Both the position numbers and the translations under genes were made by a program. The notes below the pieces were generated by a model that saw only the letters and a program-made list of their open reading frames with translations, made no database searches and was not told the origin of the DNA. A stretch of 64,000 nucleotides of DNA from Thermoanaerobaculia bacterium. GTDB taxonomy: Bacteria; Acidobacteriota; Thermoanaerobaculia; Gp7-AA8. Shown piece by piece: positions 14,746 through 41,560 of the stretch; position 1 is the stretch's first letter; each line of letters starts with the position of its first letter. The stretch lies in the NCBI GenBank assembly GCA_035544675.1, contig DATKCA010000025.1, positions 35,776 to 99,775 on the forward strand. Reading direction: 5' to 3'.

Positions 14746-14830
14746 CCTTAGTCCTTAGGCGTTAGTCCTTAGTCCTTAGGCGTAGAGGTACGGTTCTCCT
14801 AACGCCTAAGGACTAAGGCCTAAGGACTGG
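14746..14830. repeat. REP-like intergenic hairpin built from TTAGTCC/TTAGGCG heptamers (convergent-gene spacer)
   Basis: The left arm ccttagtccttaggcgttagtccttagtccttaggcgt and right arm acgcctaaggactaaggcctaaggact are reverse complements. Overlaps the last 5 codons of the minus-strand gene. Confidence 0.7.
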
Positions 14831-15301
14831 ATTTACGGGATCGTAGTACCGCACGGCCAGGTACCCGAATCCCTTGCGCCCGTACTCGGTCTTCGGATCG
14901 GCGGAGACCACGACCATGATGTTGGGAAGGCGGTCGTCGTAGAGCACGATCGACTTCGAGCGCACGTTCCGTTTGGGCTCGCCGTGAGCCTTCTGCAGAT
15001 ACGTCTTCTGCTCGAAGAACGCAGCCTGCACCTCGGGCAGAAGCGCAAAGAGTTCGAAGCGCACCGAGCGCAGCCGCTCTCGCGAGAACTCGAGCGTCAG
15101 CGCCTTCTCTGCCGAGTAGTCGATGACTACCTCGTCTTCGTTGCGGCCAGGCTTGAGTGTCCATCCCGACTCCATGAGCGTCTGGACGGCAGCGCCCCTG
15201 GCCATGCCGATCGTCAGCCGGAACGACTGCGGAGTCATCCATGACGTCTTGCTGGCCGAGGGAAAGGCAGTGGCGAGGAGAAGTGTCAGCAGTACAGGCA
15301 T
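14813..15301 (-). CDS. hypothetical secreted protein
   Basis: Start at MPVLLTLLLATAFPSAS (signal peptide) within a longer ORF. No recognisable domain. Confidence 0.5.
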   Translation of the reverse strand: MPVLLTLLLATAFPSASKTSWMTPQSFRLTIGMARGAAVQTLMESGWTLKPGRNEDEVVIDYSAEKALTLEFSRERLRSVRFELFALLPEVQAAFFEQKTYLQKAHGEPKRNVRSKSIVLYDDRLPNIMVVVSADPKTEYGRKGFGYLAVRYYDPVNPVLRP

Positions 15302-15308
15302 CGCCGGA

Positions 15309-15980
15309 TCAGTGAACGTACGAGTCGGACTCCGCAACGGCACGACGTGACTGCACGATGGAGGCGGCCAGCATGGCCCGACGGCCGATCTCTTCCCACT
15401 GCTGCGTGCGCACGAGCTCGGGAACCGCGAGCGACCCACCCAGGTTCACGGCGATGCAGCCGGAGTCGAGATAGGCGTCGATCATGTCCAGGGGAACCGG
15501 TCCGCCGGCAAGCATCAGCACGTCGCGGATCGGCCCGCGAATGGTGCGGATGTAATCGGGGCCGCCGAGGTGCTGGGCCGGATAGATCTTGACGATGTCC
15601 GCGCCGGCTTCCCATGCCCTTATGATCTCGGTCGGTGTGGAGGCACCGGCGATGGAGAGCAGATCGTTCTCCACCGCGTACTCGATGACGCGTACGTCCG
15701 TGTGCGGCGAAACGATCACTTGCGCTCCGGCGCGGCGGGCCACGGCGGCGTCGTTGGAGTCGCGGACGGTGCCGGCGGCCAACACGATGTCGCTGTATTT
15801 CTGGCTGAGCGAAGCGATCAGGTCGATGGCGTCGGGCGTGGTCATGGTGATCTCCACGATCTTCACCCCGTTCCGCGCATAAGCCTCGGCCACGGCGTGA
15901 GCGGCCTCACGGGAATCCTCCCGGACCACACCGATGATCTGCTCTTTACTGACCTTCTCCAGAAGCTCTTTTCGCGACAT
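15309..15980 (-). CDS. eda: KDPG/KHG aldolase
   Basis: TIM-barrel Eda family (GVKIVEITMTTPDA...AGTV...GAQVIVSPH...IKIYPA). Start at MSRKELLEK. Confidence 0.85.
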   Translation of the reverse strand: MSRKELLEKVSKEQIIGVVREDSREAAHAVAEAYARNGVKIVEITMTTPDAIDLIASLSQKYSDIVLAAGTVRDSNDAAVARRAGAQVIVSPHTDVRVIEYAVENDLLSIAGASTPTEIIRAWEAGADIVKIYPAQHLGGPDYIRTIRGPIRDVLMLAGGPVPLDMIDAYLDSGCIAVNLGGSLAVPELVRTQQWEEIGRRAMLAASIVQSRRAVAESDSYVH

Positions 15981-16063
15981 GGCGGTAGCGTAACACGCCC
16001 CGGAGCAACGCCATTTTCGAGCGCATCGAAATGCTAAGCTTGGAGCGGGTCCAGGAGGATTCA

Positions 16064-16999: not shown

Positions 17000-17019
17000 C
17001 CGGTGACGCACGACACTCG

Positions 17020-17733
17020 ATGACGTGGTACCAGGAGTGGTTCGGCGAGGAGTACCTCGAGCTCTACTCCTATCGCGACGAGACCGAAGCGAAGAAGCAG
17101 GTCGCGTTCTTCAACAGGCAGTTCGGCTCGATCGGCGGGCCCGTTCTCGACCTGGCCTGCGGGATGGGCCGGCACATGCAGGAGCTCGCCGCCGCCGGGT
17201 ATCAAGGCGTCGGGTGCGACCTCTCCTGGGTCCTCCTCCGAACAGGGGAGATCGAATACGGCGCGATGCCTGTGGCGCGCGCGGACATGCGGATGCTTCC
17301 TTTCCGCGACGCGACGTTCCGCGGCCTGGTCAGCTTCTTCACGAGCTTCGGCTATTTCCCGACCGAGAGGGAGAATGCGCACGTGGTCAGCGAGATGTCG
17401 CGCGTGCTGGACGGCGGTGCGGCCTTTCTGTTCGACTATCTCAACGTTCATCGCGAGCTCGAGAAGATGGTCCAGCGCGAGACACGGCAGACTCCTCTCG
17501 GCGAAGTGGCGATCGAGCGATGGTTCGACGGCTCCGACCGCTCCTTCAACAAACGGATCACGATCGGTGATAAACGCTATCTGGAACGTGTACGCGGCTA
17601 CGATCTCGACGAAATCGCGGTGATGTTCGCCTCATGCAATCTCTCGATTCGCCACGCATTCGGGAACTTCGACGGCTCGGAGTTCACCAGGACTTCGCCG
17701 CGCCTCATCCTCGTGGGGAGCAAGAGCCGGTGA
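17020..17733 (+). CDS. class I SAM-dependent methyltransferase
   Basis: VLDLACGMGRH motif I and methyltransferase fold. Confidence 0.75.
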   Translation: MTWYQEWFGEEYLELYSYRDETEAKKQVAFFNRQFGSIGGPVLDLACGMGRHMQELAAAGYQGVGCDLSWVLLRTGEIEYGAMPVARADMRMLPFRDATFRGLVSFFTSFGYFPTERENAHVVSEMSRVLDGGAAFLFDYLNVHRELEKMVQRETRQTPLGEVAIERWFDGSDRSFNKRITIGDKRYLERVRGYDLDEIAVMFASCNLSIRHAFGNFDGSEFTRTSPRLILVGSKSR

Positions 17734-19232
17734 CCGACCCGGCCTGTCTGAGCATCCCGCTCCAGGACTATCCGGGCATGAACCGGTTCGTCCTCGACTG
17801 GATGAGCGGTGACACACGGTTTCTGCGGCGGGATGAGCGGAGCGACGCGCGGGCCGCGCGGCGACGGCCGCCGCCCCACCTCGTCGACGCGCTCATCGCC
17901 TCCAATCGCCAGTGGGGACTCTTCGTCGACGAGCAGTTGCGCCGGTGGGGCCGCGGCCAGACCGTCACCCTGATTGCGGGCCAGCAGGTGGGCTTCGCCG
18001 GCGGTCCGCTCTACACGCTGGCCAAGCTGGCGTCGCTGCTCAAGATGAAGCGCGAGCTCGAGGCGGCCGGCACGCCGGCGACCGCGTTCTTCTGGATGGC
18101 CACCGAGGATCACGACTTCGAGGAGGTGGCGTCGCTGTCGCTGCCGATGAGGACCGGGCAGCTCGATCTCCTGCGCGTCCGCGCCTCGCTCTCCGTCGAA
18201 TCGAGGGCCATGGTGGGCCCGCTGCCCGTCCCGGAGACGCTCATCGCCCAGTTCCTGACGGTGTTCGAGATGCCGCGACCGCAGTGGCTGCGCGAAGGCA
18301 TCACGTTTCGCGACTCCTTCGCGGAGCTCATTGCCGCCGTGGCCGGTGACGAGATCGTGCTCGTGGACGCGCTTCTCCCCGAGCTCCGCCGGGCCGGCGC
18401 GCCGCTGCTGGAGTCGATCTTCGAGAAGTGGGACGAAATGCAGCGCGCGCTGCGCTACCGCTCGGGCGAGCTCGAGAACAGCGGATACGTTCCCCAGGTC
18501 GCCGCGCGCGATGACGGGATGTACACGCTGTTGTTCGAGATCGCCCACGGGGAGCGGACGATCCTCGACCGGCCGAAGTCGCTCGATCCCCAACGCGTGT
18601 CCACGTCGGCGCTCACGCGCCCTCTCCTCCAGGATTTCGTGTTTCAGCCGGATGTCTTCCTCGGCGGGCCGGCCGAGGTGGCGTATTACGCCCAGCTCGC
18701 GCCGCTGCACGAGATGCTGTCCGTCCCCGTGCCCCGCGTCGGCCTGCGCGGTCACCTGCTCGTGGCGCCGCGGCGTCTCCTGCGCTTCATCGACCGGCTC
18801 GCGATCAGGCCTTCGGAGATCTTCTCGTCCCCCGACGCGCTGCTGGCGGAACGGGAGCCGGAGGCGGTCGGCGAGATCCGCCGCCTCAGCGGGGAGATGC
18901 GCAGGGAGCTGATGGAGTACGTCTCGCGCATCGCCGATCTGGCACTCCCGGCCGATCACTCCCTGGCCCGGGCCATCAATCGTTCCGTCGGGCACCTCGA
19001 GTATCACGTGAACAAGCTCGCCGAGCGCGCGGTCAAGGGCGTAGCCCGGAAGGACCGCGAGCGGTACGCCGCGGCGCGCGATCTCGTGGCCACGCTGTAC
19101 CCCGACGGCCAGGTTCAGGACCGCATCGCGGCGTGGTTCCCGCTCTGGCACGAGCACGGGAGTCACCTGATGACGCGCTTCATCGACGAGGTGGAGCCCG
19201 ATACCGCTTCATTCAAGGTGATTTCTTTATGA
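17730..19232 (+). CDS. bshC: bacillithiol biosynthesis cysteine-adding enzyme BshC
   Basis: About 500-aa BshC-family architecture (N-terminal Rossmann-like region with GQQVGFAGGPLYTLAKLASLL, C-terminal coiled coil). Start ambiguous: GTG 17730 overlapping the upstream stop, or ATG 17778. Confidence 0.78.
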   Translation: MTDPACLSIPLQDYPGMNRFVLDWMSGDTRFLRRDERSDARAARRRPPPHLVDALIASNRQWGLFVDEQLRRWGRGQTVTLIAGQQVGFAGGPLYTLAKLASLLKMKRELEAAGTPATAFFWMATEDHDFEEVASLSLPMRTGQLDLLRVRASLSVESRAMVGPLPVPETLIAQFLTVFEMPRPQWLREGITFRDSFAELIAAVAGDEIVLVDALLPELRRAGAPLLESIFEKWDEMQRALRYRSGELENSGYVPQVAARDDGMYTLLFEIAHGERTILDRPKSLDPQRVSTSALTRPLLQDFVFQPDVFLGGPAEVAYYAQLAPLHEMLSVPVPRVGLRGHLLVAPRRLLRFIDRLAIRPSEIFSSPDALLAEREPEAVGEIRRLSGEMRRELMEYVSRIADLALPADHSLARAINRSVGHLEYHVNKLAERAVKGVARKDRERYAAARDLVATLYPDGQVQDRIAAWFPLWHEHGSHLMTRFIDEVEPDTASFKVISL

Positions 19233-19951
19233 GCGAACCGGTGGATCTGTTGTTTGTGGGCGCGCATCCGGACGACGTGGAGCTCGCCTGCGGCGGCACG
19301 GTCGCGCGCGCGGTGAAGTCCGGCCTGCGCGTCGGTGTGCTCGACCTCACCCGCGGCGAGATGGGCACTCGCGGCACTGCGCAGACACGCAAGCGCGAAG
19401 CCCAGACTTCCGCGCGGATCCTCGGCGCCGCCTTCCGCAAACAGCTCGACTTCGGCGACGGAAACCTGCGCACCGGCCGCGAGGAGGAGATGGAGCTCAT
19501 CGAGCTCATTCGCGCCACGAGGCCGAAGCTCGTCTTCACTCCGCTTCCCGATGACCGGCATCCCGATCACACGCGCACCGGGAAGATCGTCACCGAGGCC
19601 TCGTTTTATGCCGGGTTGAGACAGATCAGGACCGGCACCGCGGCACACCGCCCTCAAACGGTCGTCTATTACCTGCAGAACTATCAGTTTCCGCCGACAT
19701 TCATCGTCGATGTCACGAGGAGCTGGGACACGAAGATGAAGGCGGTCCGGGCTTTCAAATCACAGTTCCACGATCCGAAATCGAAGGAGCCGCGAACGTT
19801 CATCTCCAATCCGGAGTTTCTGAAGGCGATCGATGCCCGGGGCCGTCACTTCGGCATCCTCATCGGAGCGACGTACGGCGAGGCTTACATCACGAAACAG
19901 CCCCCGCGGCTGGATGACATGATCGCGGCATACGGGGGACGGGAGGTTTAG
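19229..19951 (+). CDS. bshB: bacillithiol biosynthesis deacetylase BshB1 (LmbE/PIG-L family)
   Basis: VGAHPDDVELACGGT...HPDH zinc-binding LmbE motifs. ATGA overlap with the bshC stop. Confidence 0.85.
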   Translation: MSEPVDLLFVGAHPDDVELACGGTVARAVKSGLRVGVLDLTRGEMGTRGTAQTRKREAQTSARILGAAFRKQLDFGDGNLRTGREEEMELIELIRATRPKLVFTPLPDDRHPDHTRTGKIVTEASFYAGLRQIRTGTAAHRPQTVVYYLQNYQFPPTFIVDVTRSWDTKMKAVRAFKSQFHDPKSKEPRTFISNPEFLKAIDARGRHFGILIGATYGEAYITKQPPRLDDMIAAYGGREV

Positions 19952-20036
19952 TCGTTAGGCGTTAGTCGTTAGGCGTTAGGAAAGCTGTCGCGCGAAGTTC
20001 CTAAGGACTAAGGACTAAGGACTAAGGCCTGAAGTA
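19952..20036. repeat. REP-like element: TTAGGCG-type heptamer array opposed to CTAAGGA array (imperfect hairpin)
   Basis: tcgttaggcgttagtcgttaggcgttagg ...loop... cctaaggactaaggactaaggactaaggcc fills the entire bshB-bshA spacer. Confidence 0.65.
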
Positions 20037-21158
20037 ATGCGAGTAGGAATCACGTGCTATCCAACATTCGGCGGGTCGGGCGTGGTGGCCACCGAGCTCG
20101 GTCTGGCTCTGGCCAAGCAGGGCGATGAGGCGCACTTCATCAGCTACGCGCTGCCGTCGCGGCTGAACATCCTCCACGAGCGCGTGCACTTTCACGAAGT
20201 GACGGTGACCTCGTATCCGCTGTTCGACCCTTATCCGCCGTACACGCTGGCGCTGGCGACGAAGATGGCCGAGGTCGCGGCGTACGAGAAGCTCGACGTG
20301 CTGCACGTGCACTACGCGATCCCGCACGCCATCAGCGCCTACCTCGCCAAGCAGATCCTCGGCCACAACCGGATCAAAGTGATCACCACGCTGCACGGGA
20401 CAGACATCACGCTCGTCGGACGCGACGCCAGCTACCTGCCGATCACCAAGTTCGGCATCGAGATCTCGGACGGCGTCACCGCCGTCTCGGAATGGCTGAA
20501 GGACCAGACCTCGCGGAACTTCGACACGCAGAAGGACATCGAAGTGATTCCGAACTTCGTCGACCCCGATCGCTTCAAGCGTCATGAGAGCGCTTACTGC
20601 CACATGTTCGGCGGGACGGGCGAGAAAGTCCTCTGCCACGTCTCGAACTTCCGGCCGGTGAAGCGGATCATGGACGTCATCGAGATCTTCGAGAAGGTGG
20701 TGAAGGTCGTTCCCAGCCGCCTGCTGATGGTCGGCGATGGGCCGGAGCGGTCGAAGGCCGAGGCATACTGCCGCGAGCACGGCCTGCGCAAGAGCGTCTT
20801 TTTCCTCGGCAACGTCCCGAATCTCGAAGAGGTGATCGCGGCGAGCCATCTCTTCCTGCTGCCCTCGGAGACCGAGTCGTTCGGAATGGCGGCCCTGGAG
20901 GCGCTGGCGTCGGAAGTTCCGGTGATCGCGACGCGAACGGGGGGCCTGCCGGAGGTGGTCGCGGACGGCGAGACGGGATTCCTGCTGCCGGTCGGCGACG
21001 TGAACGCGATGGCCGCGCGCGCGATCGAGATCCTCTCTGACGACTCGCTCCAGCGGCGGATGGGCATGGCCGGCCGTGAGCTGGCGATCGAGCGCTTCGA
21101 CGAGAACAAGATCGTGCCGCGGTATCGGAAGCTGTATCAGCGGGTTTTGAGCTCCTAG
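20037..21158 (+). CDS. bshA: N-acetyl-alpha-D-glucosaminyl L-malate synthase BshA (GT4)
   Basis: MRVGITCYPTFGGSGVVATELG... GT-B fold with the EX7E-like motif (ETESFGMAALEALASEVPVIA). Confidence 0.85.
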   Translation: MRVGITCYPTFGGSGVVATELGLALAKQGDEAHFISYALPSRLNILHERVHFHEVTVTSYPLFDPYPPYTLALATKMAEVAAYEKLDVLHVHYAIPHAISAYLAKQILGHNRIKVITTLHGTDITLVGRDASYLPITKFGIEISDGVTAVSEWLKDQTSRNFDTQKDIEVIPNFVDPDRFKRHESAYCHMFGGTGEKVLCHVSNFRPVKRIMDVIEIFEKVVKVVPSRLLMVGDGPERSKAEAYCREHGLRKSVFFLGNVPNLEEVIAASHLFLLPSETESFGMAALEALASEVPVIATRTGGLPEVVADGETGFLLPVGDVNAMAARAIEILSDDSLQRRMGMAGRELAIERFDENKIVPRYRKLYQRVLSS

Positions 21159-21212
21159 AGCTCAGGGTCTCCCGAGGCCCGAGGCCCGAGACCCGAGACC
21201 CGAGGCCCGCCT
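21159..21212. repeat. tandem heptamer array (RCCCGAG)x5 in convergent spacer
   Basis: ccgaggcccgaggcccgagacccgagacccgaggccc lies between the bshA and slt stops and is preceded by gagctcctagagctc. Confidence 0.65.
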
Positions 21213-23594
21213 TCAAGGCTCGATGCGGATCCCGCCGGCCGGCCCGCCCTGGCCGTAGATCTCGTTGTAGCGTTTGTAGCTGTTCATGACCTTGCGGACG
21301 TAGTGCTTCGTCTCGTCGAAGTTGATGGCCACGAAGAACCAGTCGTCGCCAGGCGCAGCGGCCAGGCGCGACCAGAGCGCGACCTGCTTCGGTCCGGCGT
21401 TGTATGCGGCCGCCGCTCGATAACGATTGCCGCCGAACTGCTGCGAGAGCTCGCTGACGTACTTTGCGCCCAGCCGGATGATCACGCGGGGGTCGTACAG
21501 GTCTTCCGCCGTGACGTCGACGAGGCCGACCTCGCGGCCGATCTCGCGCGCCGTGGTGATGATGAACTGAAGCAGGCCGCGCGCGGCTGCCTGCGACTTT
21601 GCGCGCGGATTGAACCGCGACTCCTCGCGCATGATCGACAGGACCAGGGTGGGGTCGGCGTCGTACCGCTCCGCGTCCGAGACGATGTACGACAGGAAGT
21701 AGCGTGGATAAAGAAGCTGGCGGACGCTCATCGGCAGCAGGTCGGGAACGTAGTCGGCCGGCACCGACCTCATGAGAATCTCGATGGCGCGAATCGACTC
21801 CCTCGAGGCGCTGCCGCGATTCAGGGCGATCGCCTGGGTCAGGGCCGAGCGCGGCTCGTTCAAGGGGAACTTCTGGCGAATCTCATCCACGGCCTCGTCA
21901 TGGAGACCCATGGCCATGAGGATCGTGGCGCGGTCGGCATCCTCGGGCAGCGGGAAGCGCGGCAGCGGCTGTGGCTGAAGCTCCAGGATGGCGCGGTACT
22001 CCGGCAGCTCGCGGTAGATCGCGGCGAGACGTTGCAGCTCGCCGGCGCGATTGCTCGATGACAGGAGGATGCGATCGGTCTCGACGTCCTTCGCTTCACC
22101 GAATCTCTTCGACGCCATGAGACTGGTCACCTGCGCTTCTCTCGACTGCAACTCCTGGGTGAGGCGCGCTGCAAGCGGCGGGGAGTCCAGCCGCTCCCGC
22201 GCAAAATACGCGTAGTGCGCCGGCGCGCTGGACCGCAGCACGGTGAGATACGACGCGAATGCGGCTCTGGCATCGCTCGCCTCGAGCGCTCGCGCCTTCC
22301 AGTACGCGAACTCGGGCCGGTCGTAATCATTGAGGAGCCCCGCCGGAACCGTGTTCAGGACCGAGACGGCGGCCGCACCGTTCCCCGCGGCGAGCATTCC
22401 CACGGCGTAGGCGAGGGATCCCTCGACGAGGGCGCGGTCGGAGGGTGCGATCCTGCGGAGCAGCACCACATCCGTGGCGGCCTCGCTGAGGCGCCCGGCT
22501 TTGACACGGGTGCGGATGCGCTGGGTGAGAGCGGTCGTGGTCTGCGGAAACGTCCCGGGGATGGCGATCGTCGCGGTCATCAGACGTTCGGCGCCGGCAT
22601 CGTCGCCGAGAAGCTGCGCCGCGCGAGCGGCATGCCACAGAAACATGGCCTTCCACTTCGGATCGGAGGTGGAGTTGGCGCCTCGCATGTACGCCTCGCC
22701 GGCGGCGGTGAAGTCCTCGCGGCCGAAGTGACTCCGTCCCAGGGCGTACTGCAGCTCATCGCGCCGGGCGGGAAGGTTCGGGATGGCCGAGGCGATGAAG
22801 GCGGCGGCGCGATCGAAGTGCCGGTGCTGCTGCATGGTCTCGCCGAAGAGGGCGCGCTGCTGCGGCGTCATCGTGCGCACGATCTCGGGCCGGTCGAGAG
22901 CGCGGGCCACGCGATCGGCCGCATCGTCTGTAATGGACGCGCCCAGCACCGCCAGGCCGGCCGTGAACGCGGCGGGAAGCTCGCCGCGGCGCACCAGGAC
23001 TTCGACCATCAGGGCGTCGAGGTCGCGGCTCGGCCCGGCCCTGGCGATGAAGCTGGCCAGCCTGTCCTTGTCGTTGACCGCCGCGAGAAGGGCGGCCTCC
23101 TCATCGATGGCCTCGTCGCGGTACATCGAGCCGTCACTCTCGAAGATCACTGCCTGCCGCACAGTGCTCGCCGCCCGGTCGTTGTTCCGGGCTGCATGAA
23201 TGGCGGCCTGGTGATACAGCGCCAGGGAGCGAAACGGGCTCCCGGCGTCGAGGAAGGGGCGGAGAGCGGCTTCGGCGTCGTCGAGCTCGTTCTCCTCGAG
23301 CAAAGCGCGCCCGTGCAGGTAGCCGAGCGACAGGCGGGCATACTGCTGCGGCTGCGTGGTCCTGATCTGGTCCAGCAGCGCGGCGAGATCCTCCGCATTC
23401 AGTGCGGCGAACGTTTCGCTCCACTGGTCGAGGGGCGGGACTGTCCGCGGTGGCTCCGTTCGCGTTTCCGCCGGCGCGACACGAAACAGACGGTGCCGCT
23501 GAAGGCGCTGCCTGGAAAGAATCACGGCGAAAACGACGATTGCCAGCAGGACCGCGGAGGCCGCTGCGAGTGTGACGAGTTTTCGTTTTGTCAA
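21213..23594 (-). CDS. slt: soluble lytic murein transglycosylase (Slt family) with superhelical N-terminal domain
   Basis: C-terminal SLT domain (LVLSIMREESRFNPRAKS...AAAAYNAGPKQV). Probable TTG start at MTKRKLVTLAAASAVLL (signal anchor), forming a TTGA overlap with the upstream gene's stop. The ORF track extends to 23777. Confidence 0.8.
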   Translation of the reverse strand: MTKRKLVTLAAASAVLLAIVVFAVILSRQRLQRHRLFRVAPAETRTEPPRTVPPLDQWSETFAALNAEDLAALLDQIRTTQPQQYARLSLGYLHGRALLEENELDDAEAALRPFLDAGSPFRSLALYHQAAIHAARNNDRAASTVRQAVIFESDGSMYRDEAIDEEAALLAAVNDKDRLASFIARAGPSRDLDALMVEVLVRRGELPAAFTAGLAVLGASITDDAADRVARALDRPEIVRTMTPQQRALFGETMQQHRHFDRAAAFIASAIPNLPARRDELQYALGRSHFGREDFTAAGEAYMRGANSTSDPKWKAMFLWHAARAAQLLGDDAGAERLMTATIAIPGTFPQTTTALTQRIRTRVKAGRLSEAATDVVLLRRIAPSDRALVEGSLAYAVGMLAAGNGAAAVSVLNTVPAGLLNDYDRPEFAYWKARALEASDARAAFASYLTVLRSSAPAHYAYFARERLDSPPLAARLTQELQSREAQVTSLMASKRFGEAKDVETDRILLSSSNRAGELQRLAAIYRELPEYRAILELQPQPLPRFPLPEDADRATILMAMGLHDEAVDEIRQKFPLNEPRSALTQAIALNRGSASRESIRAIEILMRSVPADYVPDLLPMSVRQLLYPRYFLSYIVSDAERYDADPTLVLSIMREESRFNPRAKSQAAARGLLQFIITTAREIGREVGLVDVTAEDLYDPRVIIRLGAKYVSELSQQFGGNRYRAAAAYNAGPKQVALWSRLAAAPGDDWFFVAINFDETKHYVRKVMNSYKRYNEIYGQGGPAGGIRIEP

Positions 23595-27317: not shown

Positions 27318-28523
27318 ATGGAGTTCGACATCTTCTTCTCCATCTGCCAGACCGAGGTGAACGGCTACCTGCCGAGCGAGCGGGTCATGTTCGAGAACTT
27401 CTTCGAGCAGGTGGAACTTGCGGACCAGCTTGGTTTCAATACGGCGTGGGTCGCCGAGAGCCATCTCTCCACCGAGGTGCAGAAGACCAATCCCGGAGCA
27501 GTCATCCCGCACTTCGTGGGCGAGATCGGATTGAACACCGACATCCTCCAGCTCGCGCATCGGGTGTTCGCGCGGACGAGCGGCCTCGGCATCGGCTCGG
27601 CGATCATGAACATCCTCTGCAACGGCGGCCCGATCGCCGCGGCGGAGCGGGTCAAGACGTTCCTGGCGCTGCACGGTCTCGATCCGGAAGAGAAACGCAC
27701 GCTGACGGTCGGCTTCGCATCGGGCCGCTTCCCTTTCATCAACGTGCCGTACGGCATCGTCCCGCGCAGTCCCCTGGAGACCGCGGCGTGGCCTGTCGTG
27801 AAGAACCGGATCTTCGAAGAAGCCACGGAGATCTTTCTAAGGCTGCTGAAAGGGGAGACCCTGAGCTCGGACGACGTGGCGCGGCGGATACTGCGCCGCG
27901 CCGACTTCCGCTCCGACGCCGACTGGCAGCGGGTGGTCGAGGCATATGGGACGGAAGCCGCCGAGATCGTGCTGGAGCCGCGCTGGCGGTTCCCGAATCT
28001 CAAGATCGTGCCGCAGGAGCCGCGCATGGAGCTGCTGAGGCTCTCGATCGGCTCGCACGATCCGGCCACGCAGATCTTCGCGAACACTCTCATGCCCGTC
28101 GGCGTCTTCAACCTGTCGATCACGCCGGGCGACGAGATCGAGAAGACCAACGAGCGCATGCGCACGCACTACCATCCCGGCGGCGGGGGATGGCATCGCC
28201 GGCTGATGCCGCGCACCGTCCTCTGCTTCATCAACGACGATGCCGCCGCGGCCGCCGGAGAGGCCCGCCAGGCGTTGTCGAACTACTGGCGCGCTCTGGA
28301 GGGGACGCTGGACGAGGAGAAGGTGCGGCGGGCCACGAACAACGCTCTGGTCGGCGATGCCGCGGCCATCCTGGCCCAGATGGAGCAGCGGTTTGACCCC
28401 GAAGACCGGCTGATGCTCTGGTTCGACTTCAACAATCACGACTCGAAACGCGTGATGCGCAACATGGAGGCCTTCATGACCCGCGTCGCTCCGCGCTTCG
28501 CATCGATGGGAATCGCCCGGTGA
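27318..28523 (+). CDS. LLM-class (luciferase-like) flavin-dependent oxidoreductase
   Basis: MEFDIFFSICQ... TIM-barrel LLM family. Start placed after the terminator hairpin. The ORF track's upstream extension is rejected. Confidence 0.78.
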   Translation: MEFDIFFSICQTEVNGYLPSERVMFENFFEQVELADQLGFNTAWVAESHLSTEVQKTNPGAVIPHFVGEIGLNTDILQLAHRVFARTSGLGIGSAIMNILCNGGPIAAAERVKTFLALHGLDPEEKRTLTVGFASGRFPFINVPYGIVPRSPLETAAWPVVKNRIFEEATEIFLRLLKGETLSSDDVARRILRRADFRSDADWQRVVEAYGTEAAEIVLEPRWRFPNLKIVPQEPRMELLRLSIGSHDPATQIFANTLMPVGVFNLSITPGDEIEKTNERMRTHYHPGGGGWHRRLMPRTVLCFINDDAAAAAGEARQALSNYWRALEGTLDEEKVRRATNNALVGDAAAILAQMEQRFDPEDRLMLWFDFNNHDSKRVMRNMEAFMTRVAPRFASMGIAR

Positions 28524-33425: not shown

Positions 33426-33510
33426 GCCTCTGCGTGAGCTTTGTGATCTCTGTGACTCTGTGGTTGACGTCAAACCACAGAGTCACAGAGGACGCAGAGC
33501 TTACGCAGAG
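33426..33510. repeat. nested perfect palindrome (16-bp stem, 11-nt self-complementary loop, inside an outer 14-bp inverted repeat)
   Basis: The inner stem ctctgtgactctgtgg pairs with ccacagagtcacagag around the loop ttgacgtcaaa. The outer arm cctctgcgtgagctt pairs with gagcttacgcagagg. Confidence 0.7.
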
Positions 33511-33512
33511 GT

Positions 33513-33580
33513 TCCTTAGTCCTTAGTCCTTAGAGGCCTTAGGCCTTACTTAGTCCTTAGTCCTTAGTCCTTAGTCCTCT
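33513..33580. repeat. TTAGTCC/TTAGGCC heptamer array abutting the GGDEF-EAL gene stop
   Basis: ccttagtccttagtccttagaggccttaggccttacttagtccttagtccttagtccttagtcct. Confidence 0.7.
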
Positions 33581-35615
33581 AGGCGTTGGCGGCTTTGCGC
33601 TCGATGAGGAACGACTCGAGGGCATTGGCAGGCAGCGGCGGGCTGAATAGATATCCCTGAATCACATCGCAGTGCTGCCGGCGCAAAAAGTCGAGCTGCT
33701 CTTCCGTCTCCACGCCCTCGGCCACGACCTTGAGATTCAGGCTGTGAGCCATGGAGATGACGGCGCTGACGATGGCCGCGTCGGTGGGATCGGTCGTCAC
33801 GTCGCGCACGAAGATCTGGTCGAGCTTGAGCGTGTCGATCGGAAAACGCTTCAGGTAATTGAGAGACGAGTAACCCGTCCCGAAGTCGTCCATGGAGATC
33901 CGGATCCCGAGGGCCTTGAGCTCGCGAAGCGTGTACATGGTGTTCTCGGCGTTCTGCATCGCGTTGCTCTCGGTGATCTCGACCTCCAGCGAAGAGGGAT
34001 CGATACCTGTCTCCATCACGACATTGCGGATCTGGCTGACGAGGTCCGGCTGCTGGAACTGGCGGGCCGAGAGGTTGACCGCGACCGTCAGTTCCTTGTC
34101 GATCTTCTTCTGCCAGATCTTGATCTGCCGGCAGGCCGTGTAGATCACCCACTCGCCGATGGGCACGATCAGTCCGGAGACCTCGGCCACCGAGATGAAC
34201 CGCGCCGGAGAGAGCAGCCCTTCTTCCGGATGCTGCCAGCGGATGAGGGCCTCCACGCCGATGGTGGCGTTGGTGCGCGAGTCGATCTGCGGCTGGTAGT
34301 AGAGGACGAGCTCGTTCTGGCTGAGCGCCTTGCGCAGCGAGTTCTCTTTGGCCAGGCGTTCCACGGCCCGCGCGTTCATGGCCGGAGCGTAAAGCTGGTA
34401 GTTGTCGCGACCCTGGTCCTTGGCCCGGTACATGGCCGTGTCGGCGTTTCTTACGAGCGTCTCCGGATCGAGTCCGTCGCCGGGAAAGAGGCTGACGCCG
34501 ATGCTCGTGGTGACGAAGAGCTCCTGATCGTGAATGACGAAGGGGATCTTCAGGGTCTCGATGATCTTGTGAGCGATCTTCGCGGCGTCCTCGATGTTCT
34601 CGATCCTGGGGATGAGAAGCGTGAACTCGTCGCCGCCGAAACGCGCGACGGTGTCACCCTCGCGCACGCAGCGGCGGATCCGCTCCGCGACCGATTTCAG
34701 CAGCGCGTCGCCCATGGAGTGCCCCAGGGAGTCGTTGATGTCCTTGAAGCGGTCCAGATCGAGGAAGAAGACGGCGAGCTTCTGGTTGCCGCGATTGGCC
34801 TGGGCGAGCGAGATGATCAGGCGGTCCATGAAGAGCGGCCGGTTGGGAAGACCGGTCAGGGCGTCGTGGTAGGCGAGATGCTCGATCTCGACCGCTGCCA
34901 GCTCCGCCGCCTCGCGCTCATCTTCGAGCAGGCAGGCGATCATGCCGACGCCGACGAGGGTCTGAATCAGGAGATCGATGAATCCGGAATGGGCGGCCAG
35001 TAGCTCCATGCCCCGGCCCGACAGCCAGAAGCTGCCGATGAATGCGTGCTCGAGCTGCTGCAGCGCCGTCGCGGCAAACGCGATGCTGAGGATGATGGAG
35101 CCGACGCCCGAATGCCTGCGGCGCACGCGCCACAGCACTACGGCCGCCGTGGCGAACCCCGCCGCGCCGATGATCGCGAAGGTCCCGTTGCGCGCGAAAT
35201 GCCGGGCCAGCGGCGACGAATCCGCCGTCACGAACAGCAGCGCCGTGAGCGATCCGAACACAGCAAGACCGATGAGAATCCGGCGCGACTCGACGATCCT
35301 CACCGGACGCCGGCGCGTGAACTCGTAGACGCCGAACAGGACCCAGCCGACGTAGAGGTAGCTGCCCGCCATCGCAATCGCTGCCGGGATCAGTCGCGCC
35401 GGGTGAGCCGCGGCCAGACCGGCCCCGATGGCATTCGTTCCGGAGATCGCCACCGCCAGGTGAACCATCGTGAGCGCCGCCCAGGACAGCGTCCAGTGAA
35501 GCAGGTAGGTCTTCCGGTAGGAGAGGTAGAAGCTGAGGAGCAGGCAGGCCATGACCGCCGCGCCGATCATCTGCGCGGTAAAGCTCAAGCCTGCGGCAAG
35601 CTTCAACTCAGGCAT
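33579..35615 (-). CDS. membrane-anchored GGDEF-EAL protein (diguanylate cyclase/phosphodiesterase)
   Basis: N-terminal multi-TM sensor region, then GGDEF (RFGGDEF) and EAL (EVEITES...DDFGTGYSSL) domains. Confidence 0.9.
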   Translation of the reverse strand: MPELKLAAGLSFTAQMIGAAVMACLLLSFYLSYRKTYLLHWTLSWAALTMVHLAVAISGTNAIGAGLAAAHPARLIPAAIAMAGSYLYVGWVLFGVYEFTRRRPVRIVESRRILIGLAVFGSLTALLFVTADSSPLARHFARNGTFAIIGAAGFATAAVVLWRVRRRHSGVGSIILSIAFAATALQQLEHAFIGSFWLSGRGMELLAAHSGFIDLLIQTLVGVGMIACLLEDEREAAELAAVEIEHLAYHDALTGLPNRPLFMDRLIISLAQANRGNQKLAVFFLDLDRFKDINDSLGHSMGDALLKSVAERIRRCVREGDTVARFGGDEFTLLIPRIENIEDAAKIAHKIIETLKIPFVIHDQELFVTTSIGVSLFPGDGLDPETLVRNADTAMYRAKDQGRDNYQLYAPAMNARAVERLAKENSLRKALSQNELVLYYQPQIDSRTNATIGVEALIRWQHPEEGLLSPARFISVAEVSGLIVPIGEWVIYTACRQIKIWQKKIDKELTVAVNLSARQFQQPDLVSQIRNVVMETGIDPSSLEVEITESNAMQNAENTMYTLRELKALGIRISMDDFGTGYSSLNYLKRFPIDTLKLDQIFVRDVTTDPTDAAIVSAVISMAHSLNLKVVAEGVETEEQLDFLRRQHCDVIQGYLFSPPLPANALESFLIERKAANA

Positions 35616-37026: not shown

Positions 37027-38229
37027 GTGATCTCCCTTAGATTCCTCGGCGGCCTTTCCCCGGCGCTCCGCGTGGCCGTCGTCTTTTATCTCCTCCACAT
37101 CCTTCTGCAGGGCAAGATCGCGCTTTTGCAGATCACGGCGTTCGTCACGATCCTCTTTCTGGGCTGGTCCATCGCGCGTGGCGAGATGCGCGCATCGTTC
37201 CACATCCTCTTCTTCCCGCTCGCGCTCTACGGTCTCGCCTCCAGTCTCTCCGCGCTGGCCAACGGCGTCTCGATCCATCGGTTCGCCGACGCCGGCATCT
37301 GGTTCAAGATGCTCATCTTCCCCGCCGCGCTGCTGATCTTCCGCCAGGTCCCCCAGACCAGAGAGCTCGCCCTGCGCGCGCAGATCGTGTTCGCGACATC
37401 CATCGCCCTCGTCGGTCTGTACCAGTACTTCGCTCTCGATCGGCGCGACCTCGAACATCGGATCACCGGCACCTCCACGCACGTGATGACGTACTCGGGG
37501 CTGCTGCTGCCTGCGTCACTCCTTCTCCTGGTGCTGGCCATTCACCGCCAGCGCTGGTGGCTGTGGGCGGCGGCAGGGATCACCTCGTTTGCGCTTCTCC
37601 TCACGTTCACACGGAGCGTATGGGTGGCCTGGGCGGTGGCCGCGCTCGCCCTGTTCGCGCTCACACGGCCGCGGTGGCTGATGTTCGCCGTTCCTCTGCT
37701 GCTGATCTTCGTGACGCTGATGCCGCTCGACCTCTTCGGCCGGCTGATCTCGTCCTTCGATCTGGAGGTGACGTCGAACTTCGACCGCGTGCGCATGGTC
37801 GAGGCCGGCGCGGAGATCATCAAGGACTACCCGACCACCGGCGTCGGCCCGGCCAACGTGAAGGAGATCTACCCCCTCTACCGCAAGCCGGATGCCCCCC
37901 GCTTCCGCCCGCCCCACCTCCACAACAACGTGGTCCAGATCTGGGCCGAGCGCGGAATCCTCGGCCTCTCGGCGTATCTGCTGCTCCTGGGGCTGTTCCT
38001 GCGGGAATGCGCGCGGGGGTGGCGCGGGGGCGGGCGGATGTGGGCGGAGGGAGGGGTGGTGGTGGCGGTGGGGCTGACCTGCGCGGGCCTCTTCGAGTTC
38101 AACTTCGGGGATGCCGAGGTCTTCTACCTGATGCTCGAGTATTTCGCCCTGATCGTGGCCTCCCTGGAGGCCACGCCCGAGCCCGCCCCGAATGAACCCG
38201 CCCCCTCCCTTGTTCCAGCAGGTTCGTAA
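37027..38229 (+). CDS. O-antigen ligase/polymerase-like (Wzy_C) membrane protein
   Basis: About 11 TM with the FTRSVWVAW Wzy_C loop motif. Confidence 0.68.
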   Translation: MISLRFLGGLSPALRVAVVFYLLHILLQGKIALLQITAFVTILFLGWSIARGEMRASFHILFFPLALYGLASSLSALANGVSIHRFADAGIWFKMLIFPAALLIFRQVPQTRELALRAQIVFATSIALVGLYQYFALDRRDLEHRITGTSTHVMTYSGLLLPASLLLLVLAIHRQRWWLWAAAGITSFALLLTFTRSVWVAWAVAALALFALTRPRWLMFAVPLLLIFVTLMPLDLFGRLISSFDLEVTSNFDRVRMVEAGAEIIKDYPTTGVGPANVKEIYPLYRKPDAPRFRPPHLHNNVVQIWAERGILGLSAYLLLLGLFLRECARGWRGGGRMWAEGGVVVAVGLTCAGLFEFNFGDAEVFYLMLEYFALIVASLEATPEPAPNEPAPSLVPAGS

Positions 38230-38274
38230 CCTTTGAGACATGGTCCCGTCGAACAACATAGAGACGCTGGGGAA

Positions 38275-38853: not shown

Positions 38854-39845
38854 TGAGACAGAGCATGCCGTTCCTGCTGACCGAGTCGCTCGACCGCGAC
38901 CAGCGGGAGCAGACACACCAGCACATCGAGAGCTGCGCAGTCTGCGGCAGCGAATGGGCTGCGTACAGGGACACCTGGGGCGTCCTGGGCGAGCTGCCCA
39001 AGGTGGAAGTGCCGGCCCGCGTCCGTGACCGGTTTCTCGTTGCGATCGGCGCGCCCGCTGCCGCCGCTCCGGTGGGAGGGGCGCAGGTCGTTGCCTTCCA
39101 CCGCCGCAGCGCGGCCAGGTGGCTCGCCCAGGCCGCCGCGGTCGTCGTCATCGCTGGCGGTGCCTACTTCGCCGGACACCGCACGGTGCCGGTCACGCTC
39201 GCTCCGACAGGACCGGTCATCAGCTCGATAACCCCTTTCTCCATCGCCGAGACGCGGGTCCTTTCCGCCAGCGCGATCAACCCGAACATCGAAGGGCGGC
39301 CGAACATCCAGAACGTGCAGTTCGTCGACGCCGATCCAAACGACAACACCGTCGGTCTCTCGTTCGACGTCACGTCCAGGATGACTGTGACGGGGAGTCC
39401 GACCGACAAGAGTCTCGTGCGCCTCCTCTCGTATGTTCTCGAGAACGAGGACGGCGCGGCGCCCTCGCGCTCACGCACGATCGACTGGGTCAAGCAGACC
39501 TACTCCGAGCCGGGGTATGTCGATCCGGAGATCGCCAACGCGCTGGCCAAGGTGCTGCGCAACGACGAGCACGAGGGCGTGCGCATTCGCGCCGTCGATA
39601 CGCTGACGACGCTGTCGGGGCCGGGCTCGGTGTCTACGCGCGACGCCCTGATCGAGGCGCTGAAGAACGATCCCAATCCGGCCGTCCGCATCAAGGCCGT
39701 GGAGGCGCTGGCCAACATGGCCCGCAGCGGCAGTGCGTTCGACTCTGCAACCGTGGCCACGCTGCGCCAGAAGGCAGCGCAGGATGACGAGAACCTGTAC
39801 GTCCGCGTGAAGGCGGCCGAGGTATTGAGCAGCATCCGTCCGTGA
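38835..39845 (+). CDS. anti-sigma factor (zinc-finger anti-sigma domain) with C-terminal HEAT repeats
   Basis: HIESCAVCGSEWAAY zinc-binding anti-sigma motif, a TM, then three HEAT-like repeats (VRIRAVDTL, VRIKAVEALANM, VRVKAAEVLSS). Overlaps the sigma gene. Confidence 0.65.
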   Translation: MSECSVMRQSMPFLLTESLDRDQREQTHQHIESCAVCGSEWAAYRDTWGVLGELPKVEVPARVRDRFLVAIGAPAAAAPVGGAQVVAFHRRSAARWLAQAAAVVVIAGGAYFAGHRTVPVTLAPTGPVISSITPFSIAETRVLSASAINPNIEGRPNIQNVQFVDADPNDNTVGLSFDVTSRMTVTGSPTDKSLVRLLSYVLENEDGAAPSRSRTIDWVKQTYSEPGYVDPEIANALAKVLRNDEHEGVRIRAVDTLTTLSGPGSVSTRDALIEALKNDPNPAVRIKAVEALANMARSGSAFDSATVATLRQKAAQDDENLYVRVKAAEVLSSIRP

Positions 39846-41410
39846 CAATGACCAGGAGACTCGTTCTTTTCGCCGCTCTGATTGCCGTCGCCACGACGGC
39901 CTCGGCGGACCGTTTCTCGGGCCTCGACCGGTTCCATCGCGAGATCCCGATCTTCATCGGAGGCGCGTTCAGCCTCGACAACCGTGAGGCGTCGGGCGAC
40001 ATCGACATCATCGGCACCGACGAGCCCCGTGCCAACATCACGATTGTCCGGACGATTCGGGGACTCGACGACGCGGCCGTCACCGAGGGCAAGCAGATGA
40101 CGCAGCCCTCCTTCACTGGAGACGACCGGCACAGGATCGTGCGGACATGGCTCTCACCGATGCGGAGCGGGCGGTGGTCGGCGGACTTCGCATACGTCGT
40201 GAAGGTGCCGCGAACCGTCAACGTCACCGTGTCCTCGACGACGAGCAACCGCATCCGTGTGAGCGACATGCGAGGCACCGTCCGGATCAGCAACATGAAC
40301 GGCGGAATCGTGCTCGAGCGCTTGTCGGGAGCGGTCCTGGTGGAGAGCGTCAACGGCAACATCTCGTTCCAGGCGCCGGCTGAAGTCGGCAACATTCAAC
40401 TCACCACCATCAACGGCACCGTGGAGGTTCACGCTCCCACAGAGGCGGCGTTCCGGTGGGTGGCCGAGGCGGTCAAGGGCGACATCCGGACGACGTTCCC
40501 GATCCAGGGCAACTTCCGCGGGAACACCTTCAGCGGCTACGTGAAAGAGCCCGGGCGCGCCACGATCCTCATGCGGACGCTCCTCGGTAACGTGTTGCTG
40601 CTGCGGAACGGATCGACGGGAGCCCAGGCGCAGTCCGTGAAGAACGTCATCCAGCCGACCGCGCCGGCCGCGCAGCAGCAGCCGATGCGTGGCCTCGTGG
40701 CCCGCAGCCTGACCGAGGCGGTTGTGAACGGGAACCTTCAGTACGCCACATCGATGGGCGATGTAACCATCGGCGAGGTGCGAGGCTGGGCCATCATCCG
40801 CACCGGAGCCGGCTCCGTGGAGTTCGGATCGGTACAGGGCGACCTGCAGGTCGAGTCGAACGGCGGTCCCCTCAGCCTCGGCAACATCTTCGGCCAGCTC
40901 ACGGCGAGGACCGCGGCCGGCGACGTGGTGGTGGAGTCGGCGCGGCGCGGGGGAAGCATCTTCACCGGCGGTGGGATCATCAGGCTGCTCTACAGCGGCG
41001 GACCGATGCGGCTGGAGTCGGGCGGTGGCGACATCGTGGTGCGCCGGGCAGCGGGACCGGTCAGCGCCGAGACGCGTTCGGGCGACATCACGATCACGCT
41101 CGACCATGCCTCCCGCAGCCAGCGCGTCGGCGCCAAGACCCTCAAGGGGAATCTGCTGCTGAATGTAGGCGCCGGTTTCGGTGCGGACGTCGAGGCGACG
41201 ATCCTGACGAACGACGCCAACGCGCATGCCATCCGCTCCGACTTCCCCGGCCTGACCGTGCGGCGGGACCAGGTGGGGGGCAAGACGCGGATCCGCGCCA
41301 CCGGCCGTATCAACGGCGGCGGCGAGCGCGTGGAGCTGTCCGCCGAGAACGGCGGGATCCAGATCGCCTCGCAGTTGTCCGCGACCAGCGTCGTGAACGC
41401 GCCTCGCTAA
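39842..41410 (+). CDS. DUF4097 ('putative adhesin', beta-helix) protein
   Basis: Signal peptide followed by repetitive GxI/V beta-helix strands. Typical third member of ECF sigma/anti-sigma modules. Confidence 0.62.
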   Translation: MTMTRRLVLFAALIAVATTASADRFSGLDRFHREIPIFIGGAFSLDNREASGDIDIIGTDEPRANITIVRTIRGLDDAAVTEGKQMTQPSFTGDDRHRIVRTWLSPMRSGRWSADFAYVVKVPRTVNVTVSSTTSNRIRVSDMRGTVRISNMNGGIVLERLSGAVLVESVNGNISFQAPAEVGNIQLTTINGTVEVHAPTEAAFRWVAEAVKGDIRTTFPIQGNFRGNTFSGYVKEPGRATILMRTLLGNVLLLRNGSTGAQAQSVKNVIQPTAPAAQQQPMRGLVARSLTEAVVNGNLQYATSMGDVTIGEVRGWAIIRTGAGSVEFGSVQGDLQVESNGGPLSLGNIFGQLTARTAAGDVVVESARRGGSIFTGGGIIRLLYSGGPMRLESGGGDIVVRRAAGPVSAETRSGDITITLDHASRSQRVGAKTLKGNLLLNVGAGFGADVEATILTNDANAHAIRSDFPGLTVRRDQVGGKTRIRATGRINGGGERVELSAENGGIQIASQLSATSVVNAPR

Positions 41411-41560
41411 GTCGGTCCTTCGTCCTTCCTTCGTCCTTCGTCCTTCCTTAGTCCTTAGTCCTTAGGAGACCCGCCTAAGGCCTAACCCCCCTAAGGCCTA
41501 AGGCCTAAGGACTAAGGGCCTAACGCCTAAGGCCTAAGGCCTAAGGCCAAAGACGTAGGG
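41411..41560. repeat. large REP-like element: (TCCTTCG/TCCTTAG)n arm opposed to (CCTAAGG)n arm
   Basis: gtccttcgtccttccttcgtccttcgtccttccttagtccttagtccttagg ... cctaaggcctaaggcctaaggactaagggcctaacgcctaaggcctaaggcctaaggcc. Confidence 0.75.

Follow-up and report, generated by a model that had tools for sequence, protein, structure and literature searches.

What are the short tandem heptamers that recur between the genes of a Thermoanaerobaculia chromosome, and how do they come to be there? The question is raised by a 64-kb stretch (hereafter, the window) of a soil metagenome-assembled genome (MAG) of the Thermoanaerobaculia (Acidobacteriota; G+C content of 65%), in which a preliminary description had recognized a family of repetitive extragenic palindromic (REP)-like elements built from TTAGKCS units and their complements, and had proposed that they may serve as terminators or transcript stabilizers or move like MITEs (miniature transposable elements with inverted repeats). 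We find that the TTAGKCS elements are a family of their own, with a new unit and in a new phylum, within the class of heptameric intergenic repeats: intergenic stem-loops whose arms are tandem 7-mers (sometimes 8- or 9-mers) in inverted order, a class that includes the short tandemly repeated repetitive (STRR) sequences and the GGGAATC repeats of Xanthomonas. The elements are gained and lost whole, as blocks of ~70-150 bp at gene junctions, and after gain they gain, lose, and mutate single units; copies of one genome have their unit sequences in common but not their loops, and their polarity is fixed, with the G-rich or TTAG arm coming first. Across phyla, genes for PF05635 proteins are bracketed by the same architecture as the hairpins of the window.

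Heptameric intergenic repeats have been known since 1990, with proposed explanations ranging from polymerase slippage to G-quadruplexes and translational control, and the window adds the Acidobacteriota to their hosts. The PF05635/TIGR02436 proteins, which are abundant in many phyla and related to Avd, are equally unexplained. That PF05635 is nearly always enclosed by arrays, the published Xanthomonas and Coxiella cases included, joins two separate puzzles.

Tandem heptamers in the spacers of the window

Heptamers are present in all six spacers named in the preliminary description, and far in excess of expectation: TTAGKCSTTAG has 29 matches, confined to five gene spacers, against 0.00 expected from 100 shuffles, and CCTAAGG has 17 matches against 1.69 in shuffles. 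Period-7 arrays were called with Tandem Repeats Finder and genes were mapped by their third-position GC content (GC3); all of the arrays listed from these calls (Table 1), the five TTAGKCS sites included, lie in spacers of the resulting gene map. The stop codon of the upstream gene falls inside two of the arrays (8096-8098 and 19949-19951), and the array at hairpin 1 enters the 3′ end of open reading frame (ORF) 14813-15439 (-) by 18 nt. Inverted arrays lie at 14746-14828, 19948-20030, and 41448-41515, along with a mini-palindrome at 8082-8099. The claim that a forward array faces its reverse complement in every case does not hold: 33513-33578 and 21171-21209 are direct only. The unit of the latter, CCCGAGR, differs from CCTAAGG by two transitions. 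Beyond the sites already described, there are period-7 or period-8 arrays at 4152-4170 and 10745-10778 and in a hairpin at 33446-33490, which stands directly upstream of the 33513-33578 TTAG array and places two unit families in one convergent spacer.

Most of the inverted arrays fold stably. The region 14740-14835 reaches -51.1 and -50.9 kcal/mol on the two strands (z of -6.7 and -8.6), 41411-41556 reaches -57.1 kcal/mol (z of -4.2), the 33446-33490 hairpin reaches -40.3 kcal/mol (z of -8.4), and the mini-palindrome (8075-8105) reaches -11.7 kcal/mol (z of -3.4); the fold of 19940-20040 is weaker (z of -3.1) because its two arms carry different unit variants. Loops in the window span 7-19 nt, and in element 3, pairing with the 5′ TCCTTAG units is limited to the first part of the 3′ array. 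The two direct-only regions fold no better than shuffles (z of +0.4 and -0.7 for 33505-33585, where all units run in one direction, and -0.8 for 21150-21220). Terminator and promoter scans returned nothing canonical at any element, the stems have no T-tract after them, and terminator-like sites in the window are as frequent as in shuffles (7 versus 7.2 and 4 versus 4.3). A search of the whole window at the Rfam gathering thresholds gave 0 matches.

Two further ideas were tried and set aside: a G-quadruplex role is ruled out, as TTAGKCS has no G-runs, and the notion that TAG/TAA at period 7 provides stops in all frames is ruled out as a general rule, as most units in the clade hold no stop codon.

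Gain and loss at the bshB-bshA junction

The junction between bshB and bshA, which in the window holds hairpin 2, is a natural experiment, and it shows that the hairpins behave as insertions. We assembled related loci (78 metagenomic loci fetched via BshA and five from exact look-ups, all with the gene order of the window) and compared ~62 distinct orthologous bshB-bshA junctions. A tandem-unit hairpin occupies 24 of them; its loop is unique, and its two arms each count 3-5 units (11 in one case) that are 7 or 8 nt long. Another six have a different kind of hairpin, and ~32 are empty, with no spacer or one of a few bases (0-10 nt), typically with the stop and start codons overlapping. Filled and empty states alternate between relatives at BshA distances of 3% (L132/L135), 4% (L151/L189), 7% (the window versus L121 and L122, in which, at 93% BshA identity, the block 19952-20030 is missing), and 9% (L150/L163). 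Hairpins of 70-110 bp are present or absent as wholes between relatives 3-7% apart. The filled lineages carry mutually unrelated units, implying either many independent gains or gains accompanied by precise losses. In L203, the nearest relative at this site, a TTAGGCG/TTAGGCC...CCTAAGG hairpin resembles that of the window in its loop and departs from it in the variants and numbers of its units, a difference that indicates turnover of units after gain.

Duplications at the junction are short (TATGAA/TATGAA in L132; GTGAG/ATGAG, or RTGAG, in L150) and overlap the stop and start codons that must be kept; at the window, the junction is ambiguous, and no clear target-site duplication could be established in the bshB-bshA junction alignments. 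The filled and empty states of close relatives are insertion-like, and the duplications are partly forced by stop and start codons; the elements may be MITE-like, as suggested. The final part of bshB, ahead of the hairpin, contains a GGGAGG motif serving bshA, whose start codon follows the hairpin by a few nucleotides. Among 29 junction hairpins, sense and antisense folds are equally stable (14 of 29, P = 0.45).

The bacillithiol set bshC-bshB-bshA (window 17634-21158; names taken from the annotations of relatives) is kept across soil Thermoanaerobaculia, in which overlap of the bshB stop with the bshA start is the usual state.

Heptameric hairpins across related Thermoanaerobaculia

Arrays were counted in a clade set of 84 related sequences totaling 880 kb. 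Period 7 is by far the commonest tandem period (129 of 297 arrays), and where arrays of the same period lie no more than 150 nt apart, they are inverted in 31 cases and direct in one. In the first arm of the inverted pairs, G outnumbers C in 24 cases and C outnumbers G in three, such that the G-rich arm leads; since either strand of a palindrome gives an identical reading, the polarity is a property of the element and not of gene direction. Units vary between genomes (GATGGCR, GGTCACGC, AAACCAG, GTTCCAR, GGTTGGC, AGTCCTG, GAAGGCA, and more), and identical units are shared by 16 of 79 site pairs within a locus (20%) versus 53 of 3,002 between loci (1.8%), an 11-fold difference. Same-genome copies have arms in common, but not loops or copy number. 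The description of the elements as genome-specific, extragenic, and largely palindromic holds at this level, although the TTAGKCS vocabulary itself recurs in many phyla (see below).

The hairpins of relatives also occupy divergent spacers (L124 5371-5531 and 14127-14355), and arrays in relatives abut start codons. The spacer orthologous to 21171-21209 measures 13 nt in L121 and contains inverted GGTTTTT arrays in L124. A count of 52 “coding” period-7 arrays returned by the GC3 caller was discarded, the ORFs having been extended through arrays upstream of their true starts. In practical terms, ORF calls are lengthened or cut short by the arrays, from which neighboring genes also take stop codons or C-terminal residues.

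The clade harbors a second hairpin family, with ATCCTGAGCGAAGCGAAGGAT-like arms and no tandem heptamers, at the same types of junction (L124 9894-10001, L195 upstream of bshA, L122 1615-1698, L149 17943-18040, and also L016).

TTAGKCS arrays in other phyla

A scan with TTAGKCSTTAGKCSTTAG over one genome per species (596 Gb) returned at least 120 loci. This count is not informative by itself, being near chance (~280 expected in 596 Gb); the cross-phylum occurrence carries weight because the arrays reach beyond the search pattern, not because of the number of matches. The matches listed (120 array-bearing loci), to which the following figures refer, are arrays that extend well past the pattern and adjoin gene ends, and they come from the Acidobacteriota, Gemmatimonadota, Chloroflexota, Planctomycetota, Cyanobacteriota, Bacteroidota, Pseudomonadota, and others: the TTAGKCS vocabulary is not exclusive to the source genome. 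These loci contain 264 period-7 arrays versus at most 28 for any other period, and ~103 further period-7 or period-8 sites occur in their 898 kb. A period-7 CTAA partner of the TTAG array lies downstream at 25 loci and upstream at three, and is missing at 92 (control tetramers in the same test, ~1). In the cyanobacterial loci L017, L031, and L117, TTGGTCA-like units grade into TTAGTCC. Loci L010 and L084 (a Thermoanaerobaculia MAG whose arrays are of TTAGTCS) have no overlap with the window.

PF05635 genes enclosed by inverted arrays

Two inverted GGGGCGC arrays in L156, 379 nt apart, surround a 124-aa ORF that matches PF05635 (23S rRNA intervening sequence protein; E value of 2e-29) and TIGR02436 (four helix bundle protein). 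The family resembles Avd, the accessory protein of diversity-generating retroelements (DGRs) that is essential for retrohoming, and Avd itself binds nucleic acid. PF05635 genes lie within inverted 7-8-mer arrays at 20 of 23 loci from at least eight phyla, or at 18 of 21 if three orthologous Thermoanaerobaculia loci are counted as one. All PF05635 members found in the related and TTAGKCS loci are enclosed: L152, L155, and L156 and, among the 120 TTAGKCS matches listed, L012 (Bacteroidota), L114 (Acidobacteriota), and L120 (Planctomycetota), the last three with TTAG-type arms. Further samples were picked irrespective of repeats. Here, inverted 7-8-mer flanks accompany PF05635 in Truepera (with trpE-like and trpG-like neighbors), Tundrisphaera (with nuoF-like and nuoG-like neighbors), and two MAGs, one of the Dehalococcoidia and one deltaproteobacterial. 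Of 12 copies on plasmids, nine are flanked by inverted arrays, two have a direct array on either side, and one has an array on a single side (with an insertion sequence opposite). The nine include L216 of Azospirillum, a true 23S rRNA intervening sequence (IVS) whose stem consists of CAGAGGA/CGGATGA units. The Xanthomonas orthologue of solved structure 2GSC has accB and accC as its neighbors on the two sides and is preceded by GGGAATC GGGAGTG GAGAATC GGGAATC and followed by CCCATTC CCCATTC CCGACTC CCTATTC.

Arrays are associated with PF05635 specifically: Truepera and Tundrisphaera, both with array-poor genomes, have a single other period-7 array in the 20 kb surrounding the gene, and it lies in Truepera. 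PF05635 sites usually lie within conserved operons (accB-accC, trpE-trpG, nuoF-nuoG, cmr2-cmr3, and cas6-cas4), and arrays touch the PF05635 start codon. Further observations link the cassettes to the hairpins. In L152, L155, and L156, the PF05635 cassette sits in inverted GGGGCGC/TGGGCGC arrays at the junction of a luciferase-like gene and an asparaginase II gene, which is empty (overlapping by 4 nt) in the close relative L153, as in the window, and gene-less hairpins with the unit of the cassette occur 1-3 kb from it in L152 and L156. In the literature, we found no paper that ties PF05635 to heptamer repeats in general; the paper on the Coxiella IVS alone notes heptamers.

Some observations adjoin these results. 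The luciferase-like ORF of L156 runs into the GGGGCGC array (18133-18166), and the repeat supplies its end (...GREARGAGRG) and stop; ORF 14813-15439 (-) of the window likewise ends within a repeat, the 3′ arm of hairpin 1. The PF05635 proteins of L204-L207 are 59-63% identical across Deinococcota, Planctomycetota, Chloroflexota, and a deltaproteobacterium and have related units (GTGCCGA, GTGCTGA, and AGGACTC), a pattern that suggests that the gene and its arms may transfer horizontally together. Other genes are enclosed by arrays 540-770 nt apart in L066 (4637-5470), L119 (3099-3715), and L063 (3254-3960), the products in this set being an Fpg/Nei-like glycosylase, a cytidine/deoxycytidylate-type deaminase, and an unknown protein. 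A correlation between PF05635 sequence and unit (Spearman coefficient of -0.31) was dismissed, as it is driven by orthologues and one cross-phylum group.

Relation to known repeats

The window elements have head-to-tail 7-nt units, a preference for spacers, a dominance of period 7, and variation between relatives, as expected of heptameric intergenic repeats. The earliest of these, the STRR of heterocystous cyanobacteria, were reportedly presented by Mazel et al. in 1990 as targets for fingerprinting without an assigned function; they, too, are a family of intergenic tandem heptamers, although their description is said to include neither the hairpin form with inverted arms nor the turnover at junctions seen here. 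The heptamers of Xanthomonas (GGGAATC) and Nostoc [GGGGA(C/T)T] come in 2-26 units and are over-represented between genes (Rehm et al. 2015, PMC4692102), and the same work reports 70-75 convergent GGGAATC pairs in Xanthomonas that are able to form stem-loops and whose length varies between species. Both repeats resemble the window elements in being tandem, intergenic, and within ~50 bp of stop or start codons, and GGGAATC further shares the inverted pairs with the G-rich array first and the variation in length and sequence between close relatives; they differ in that TTAGKCS has no G-tracts, which makes the G-quadruplex idea inapplicable, and in that its host is an acidobacteriote. That paper (PMC4692102) mentions none of PF05635, S23p, or RNase III, and the PF05635 gene between accB and accC has exactly its units.

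Heptanucleotides are the commonest long simple repeats in many bacteria (Mrazek 2007, as relayed in PMC4679880). The TAACTGA direct repeats of Beggiatoaceae, Cyanobacteria, and Bacteroidetes, for which binding of protein was proposed (MacGregor 2015, PMC4679880), likewise stand directly upstream of starts and inside operons, essential ones included, and are patchy across phyla; however, nearly all of their sets are direct (169, versus one indirect), whereas inverted pairs dominate the clade of the window. Similar in architecture are the IVSs of Coxiella and Leptospira that encode S23p/PF05635, in which terminal inverted repeats form a long stem, as tandem heptamers do here. Strains of Coxiella differ in how many tandem GACAGAT heptamers the IVS has upstream of its S23p ORF, and RNase III cuts the stem, which is 28 bp long, at the first of these repeats (Warrier et al. 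2016, PMC4990558). Unlike IVSs, the window elements lie between protein genes and not in rRNA, and their short loops hold no PF05635 ORF; RNase III cleavage is a feature of the Coxiella and other IVSs and may extend to the window elements by analogy. Finally, ribosome-binding sites that are split and bridged by a hairpin occur in genes 38 and 25 of phage T4, and the bshB-bshA junction is like them in geometry alone, with GGGAGG before the hairpin and the start codon after it.

Origin and possible function of the elements

The reading that we favor, which we regard as having about equal chances of being right or wrong, draws on the analogy with IVSs: the elements would be gene-less copies of the PF05635-enclosing stem that give rise to double-stranded RNA in operon transcripts, where RNase III would process it, and whose units change by slippage. 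The window copies would then be insertion-like, putatively mobile versions of the stem element that lack its gene. Co-transcribed with their neighbors, they are predicted to form 25-35 bp of double-stranded RNA, and such stems would be substrates of RNase III and probably cut, as is the heptamer stem of the Coxiella IVS. Cutting would leave operon transcripts severed or stabilized at their ends, instead of ending them by intrinsic termination. At bshB-bshA, the geometry suggests that the fold may bring the GGGAGG ribosome-binding site beside the bshA start codon. A broader version is more doubtful, and we offer it tentatively: bacterial intergenic heptamer repeats (STRR, GGGAATC, TTAGKCS, and others) might be arms that belong to a single ancient element with horizontal spread. 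In full, this element would be a gene for PF05635 (S23p; an Avd-like, pentameric four-helix-bundle protein) within inverted arrays, inserting at operon gene junctions and in helix 45 of 23S rRNA; short-loop hairpins would be gene-less derivatives, the pentamer would recognize the arrays and help to maintain or spread them, and RNase III would cut the stem.

Several results weigh against the favored reading. There is no PF05635 gene or ORF in the 64-kb window, so the link to PF05635 is, for the source genome, one of analogy. We know of no enzyme for the mobility of such elements, and their sole recurrent cargo, PF05635, is not a transposase. The short duplications at the junction (TATGAA and RTGAG) are due in part to the requirement for a stop and a start codon, and the differences in loop and copy number between same-genome copies are not those of simple copy-and-paste. 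An inverted partner is missing from 92 of 120 TTAGKCS arrays elsewhere, among the matches listed, and from two arrays of the window. The similarity of PF05635 proteins tracks that of their units weakly once orthologues are set aside, those with TTAG-type arms do not cluster, and inverted arrays of the same unit also surround other single genes. Lastly, the equal stability of sense and antisense folds gives no sign of selection on the transcript.

The chief rival, which we consider unlikely, dispenses with mobility, function, and any relation to PF05635: units would slip in place, as microsatellites do, and inverted arms would arise by template switching in a pre-existing palindrome. Slippage indeed prefers heptamers to other lengths (Mrazek 2007, as cited in PMC4679880), unit numbers and variants differ between arms and loci, loops are unique, unit changes distinguish the orthologous element of L203 from that of the window, copy number differs between Coxiella strains, and the CTAGGCC of the empty L122 site is near enough to TTAGGCC to be a seed. 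Slippage has difficulty with the empty sites themselves, which at 0-10 nt offer no hairpin to grow from while close relatives have complete palindromes of 80-110 bp; nor does it account for the 11-fold excess of unit sharing within genomes, a polarity fixed at 24:3 in the clade and 25:3 among the TTAGKCS matches listed, or the specific association with PF05635 in array-poor genomes. It is still less probable that the elements are RNA devices kept for gene regulation, whether as bidirectional terminators lacking a U-tract (“I-shaped”) or as 3′-end stabilizers. Such roles would suit very stable stems at gene ends in convergent and tandem contexts, and canonical terminators no commoner in the window than in shuffles imply that another device is needed; however, fold stability shows no strand asymmetry, the copies of relatives extend to divergent spacers, and the elements are missing from the same junction in relatives 3-7% apart. 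Stems with no T-tract, terminator counts equal to those of shuffles and none found at the elements, and a hairpin that stands inside the bshC-bshB-bshA operon, directly before bshA, leave a classical terminator role unsupported; the missing T-tract and the hairpin inside the operon count against the RNA-device reading, too.

A slightly lower probability attaches to arrays that bind protein, in which a multimer would read one heptamer per subunit and the units would co-evolve with the binding protein of the genome, candidates being the pentameric PF05635 protein or, in line with the proposal made for TAACTGA, a protein of the cold-shock, S1, or CsrA type. Units are genome-specific, with several families per genome, arrays usually number 3-5 units and touch the PF05635 start codon, PF05635 resembles the accessory protein essential for DGR retrohoming, and a solved family member is a homopentamer (Lin 2006, as cited in PMC4990558); on the other hand, TTAG-flanked PF05635 proteins from three phyla are 26-36% identical and do not cluster, and the window has no PF05635 gene. 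We hold it very improbable that the elements are REPs or REPINs (paired REPs) moved by a REP-associated tyrosine transposase (RAYT), or classical MITEs derived from an insertion sequence. REPINs, which are thought to be non-autonomous mobile DNA (Bertels & Rainey 2011, PMC3116915), are likewise genome-specific, extragenic, inverted doublets that form hairpins, and presence/absence polymorphism would fit both kinds of element. Yet the arms here are microsatellite-like, tandem heptamers of variable number and not REP units of 20-40 nt; the spacer is not conserved, loops differing at every locus; a clear target-site duplication was not seen; and neither a RAYT nor a transposase domain was found by Pfam among 30 window ORFs, a set that leaves out ~23 further called genes. 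The sequence relation of MITEs to an autonomous, transposase-encoding element was not found either, the sole recurrent cargo being PF05635. The REP-like reading is thus right in spirit (genome-specific, extragenic, palindromic, and insertion-like) but wrong as to family.

Positions of the elements and other features of the window

Table 1. Heptameric arrays and related sites in the window and in PF05635-bearing loci (TRF, period-7 arrays called by Tandem Repeats Finder)
Sequence	Feature	Position	Strand	TRF	Context
Window	CTGCGTG x2.7, then partial inverse CAGCACAGCAC	4152-4170	+		spacer after suf/FeS-assembly genes
Window	mini-element CTTAGGCCTAAGGCCTAA, two TTAGGCC units, 12-bp palindrome at 8082-8093	8082-8099	no strand	8085-8099	occupies 15-nt spacer between ddl (8096-9487, -) and ABC_tran_2 gene (6428-8080, -); includes ddl stop
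Window	direct array AACCGGR/AACGGGG, other unit, period 7	10745-10778			intergenic, between MlaD-domain gene and maf
Window	hairpin 1, 5′ arm: ~5 units TTAGTCC/TTAGGCG	14746-14779	no strand	14746-14779	begins 5 nt past stop of Sortilin/BNR gene (12402-14741, +)
Window	hairpin 1, loop, GTAGAGGTACGGTTCTCC-like	14780-14798			unique, not found in other elements
Window	hairpin 1, 3′ arm: CCTAACG CCTAAGG ACTAAGG CCTAAGG ACT	14799-14828		14806-14828	covers last codons and stop of ORF 14813-15439 (-); gene pair convergent
Window	hairpin 2, 5′ arm: TTAGTCG/TTAGGCG x4.7	19948-19980	+	19948-19980	first TAG is stop codon of bshB (PIG-L)
Window	hairpin 2, loop	19981-19999	+		like loop of orthologous element in L203
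Window	hairpin 2, 3′ arm: CCTAAGG ACTAAGG x3 CC	20000-20030	+	20001-20027	bshA start (20037) 6 nt on
Window	direct array CCCGAGR x5.6, no inverted partner	21171-21209		21171-21209	between bshA (+) and SLT transglycosylase gene (-)
Window	empty site, luciferase-like and asparaginase II genes overlapping by 4 nt	28520-28523	+		
Window	perfect 19-bp hairpin, CTCTGTGA/CACAGAG-type units	33446-33490			other unit family than TTAG
Window	TCCTTAG x~9.6, single direction, broken by AGGCCTTAGGCCTTAC, no hairpin	33513-33578	+	33513-33578	adjoins stop of GGDEF-EAL gene (33579-35615, -)
Window	element 3, 5′ arrays: TCCTTCG-type units, then TCCTTAG x3	41415-41466	+	41415-41465	begins 5 nt past stop of DUF4097 gene (39842-41410)
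Window	element 3, 3′ array: ~11 units GCCTAAG/GACTAAG	41473-41552	+	41473-41552	stops 8 nt short of ORF 41560-42309 (cyclophilin)
L156	bracketed PF05635 site	18133-18567			
L155	bracketed PF05635 site	17917-18360			
L152	bracketed PF05635 site	18260-18702			
L012	bracketed PF05635 site	2676-3111			
L114	bracketed PF05635 site	4720-5206			
L120	PF05635 locus	389-899			
L204-L207	PF05635 loci				
L211-L222	PF05635 loci				
L225	PF05635 locus	4929-5372			

The genes of the window are ordinary chromosomal ones, among them suf, ddl, mlaD, maf, proS, fadL, and bshC-bshB-bshA, as well as genes for an SLT transglycosylase, a GGDEF-EAL protein, and a cyclophilin; a protein from a Thermoanaerobaculia MAG matches the BshA of the window with 100% identity. 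Three further repeats were recorded. A plain, GC-rich perfect palindrome, TGGAGCGCCGCG...CGCGGCGCTCCA, with neither a T-tract nor tandem units, occupies the spacer (5565-5605) of the convergent genes 5214-5564 (+) and 5606-5938 (-). At 38011-38067, within ORF 37027-38229 (+), there is a G-rich repeat of period 11, GCGCGGGGGTG x5.3 (68% match). At 51877-51923, a 21-bp direct repeat, CTGGACAGTCATGGGTGCGTC x2.2 (96% match), is situated at the overlap of ORFs 50068-52083 (-) and 51980-54574 (+) and could be an operator or a mis-called start region.

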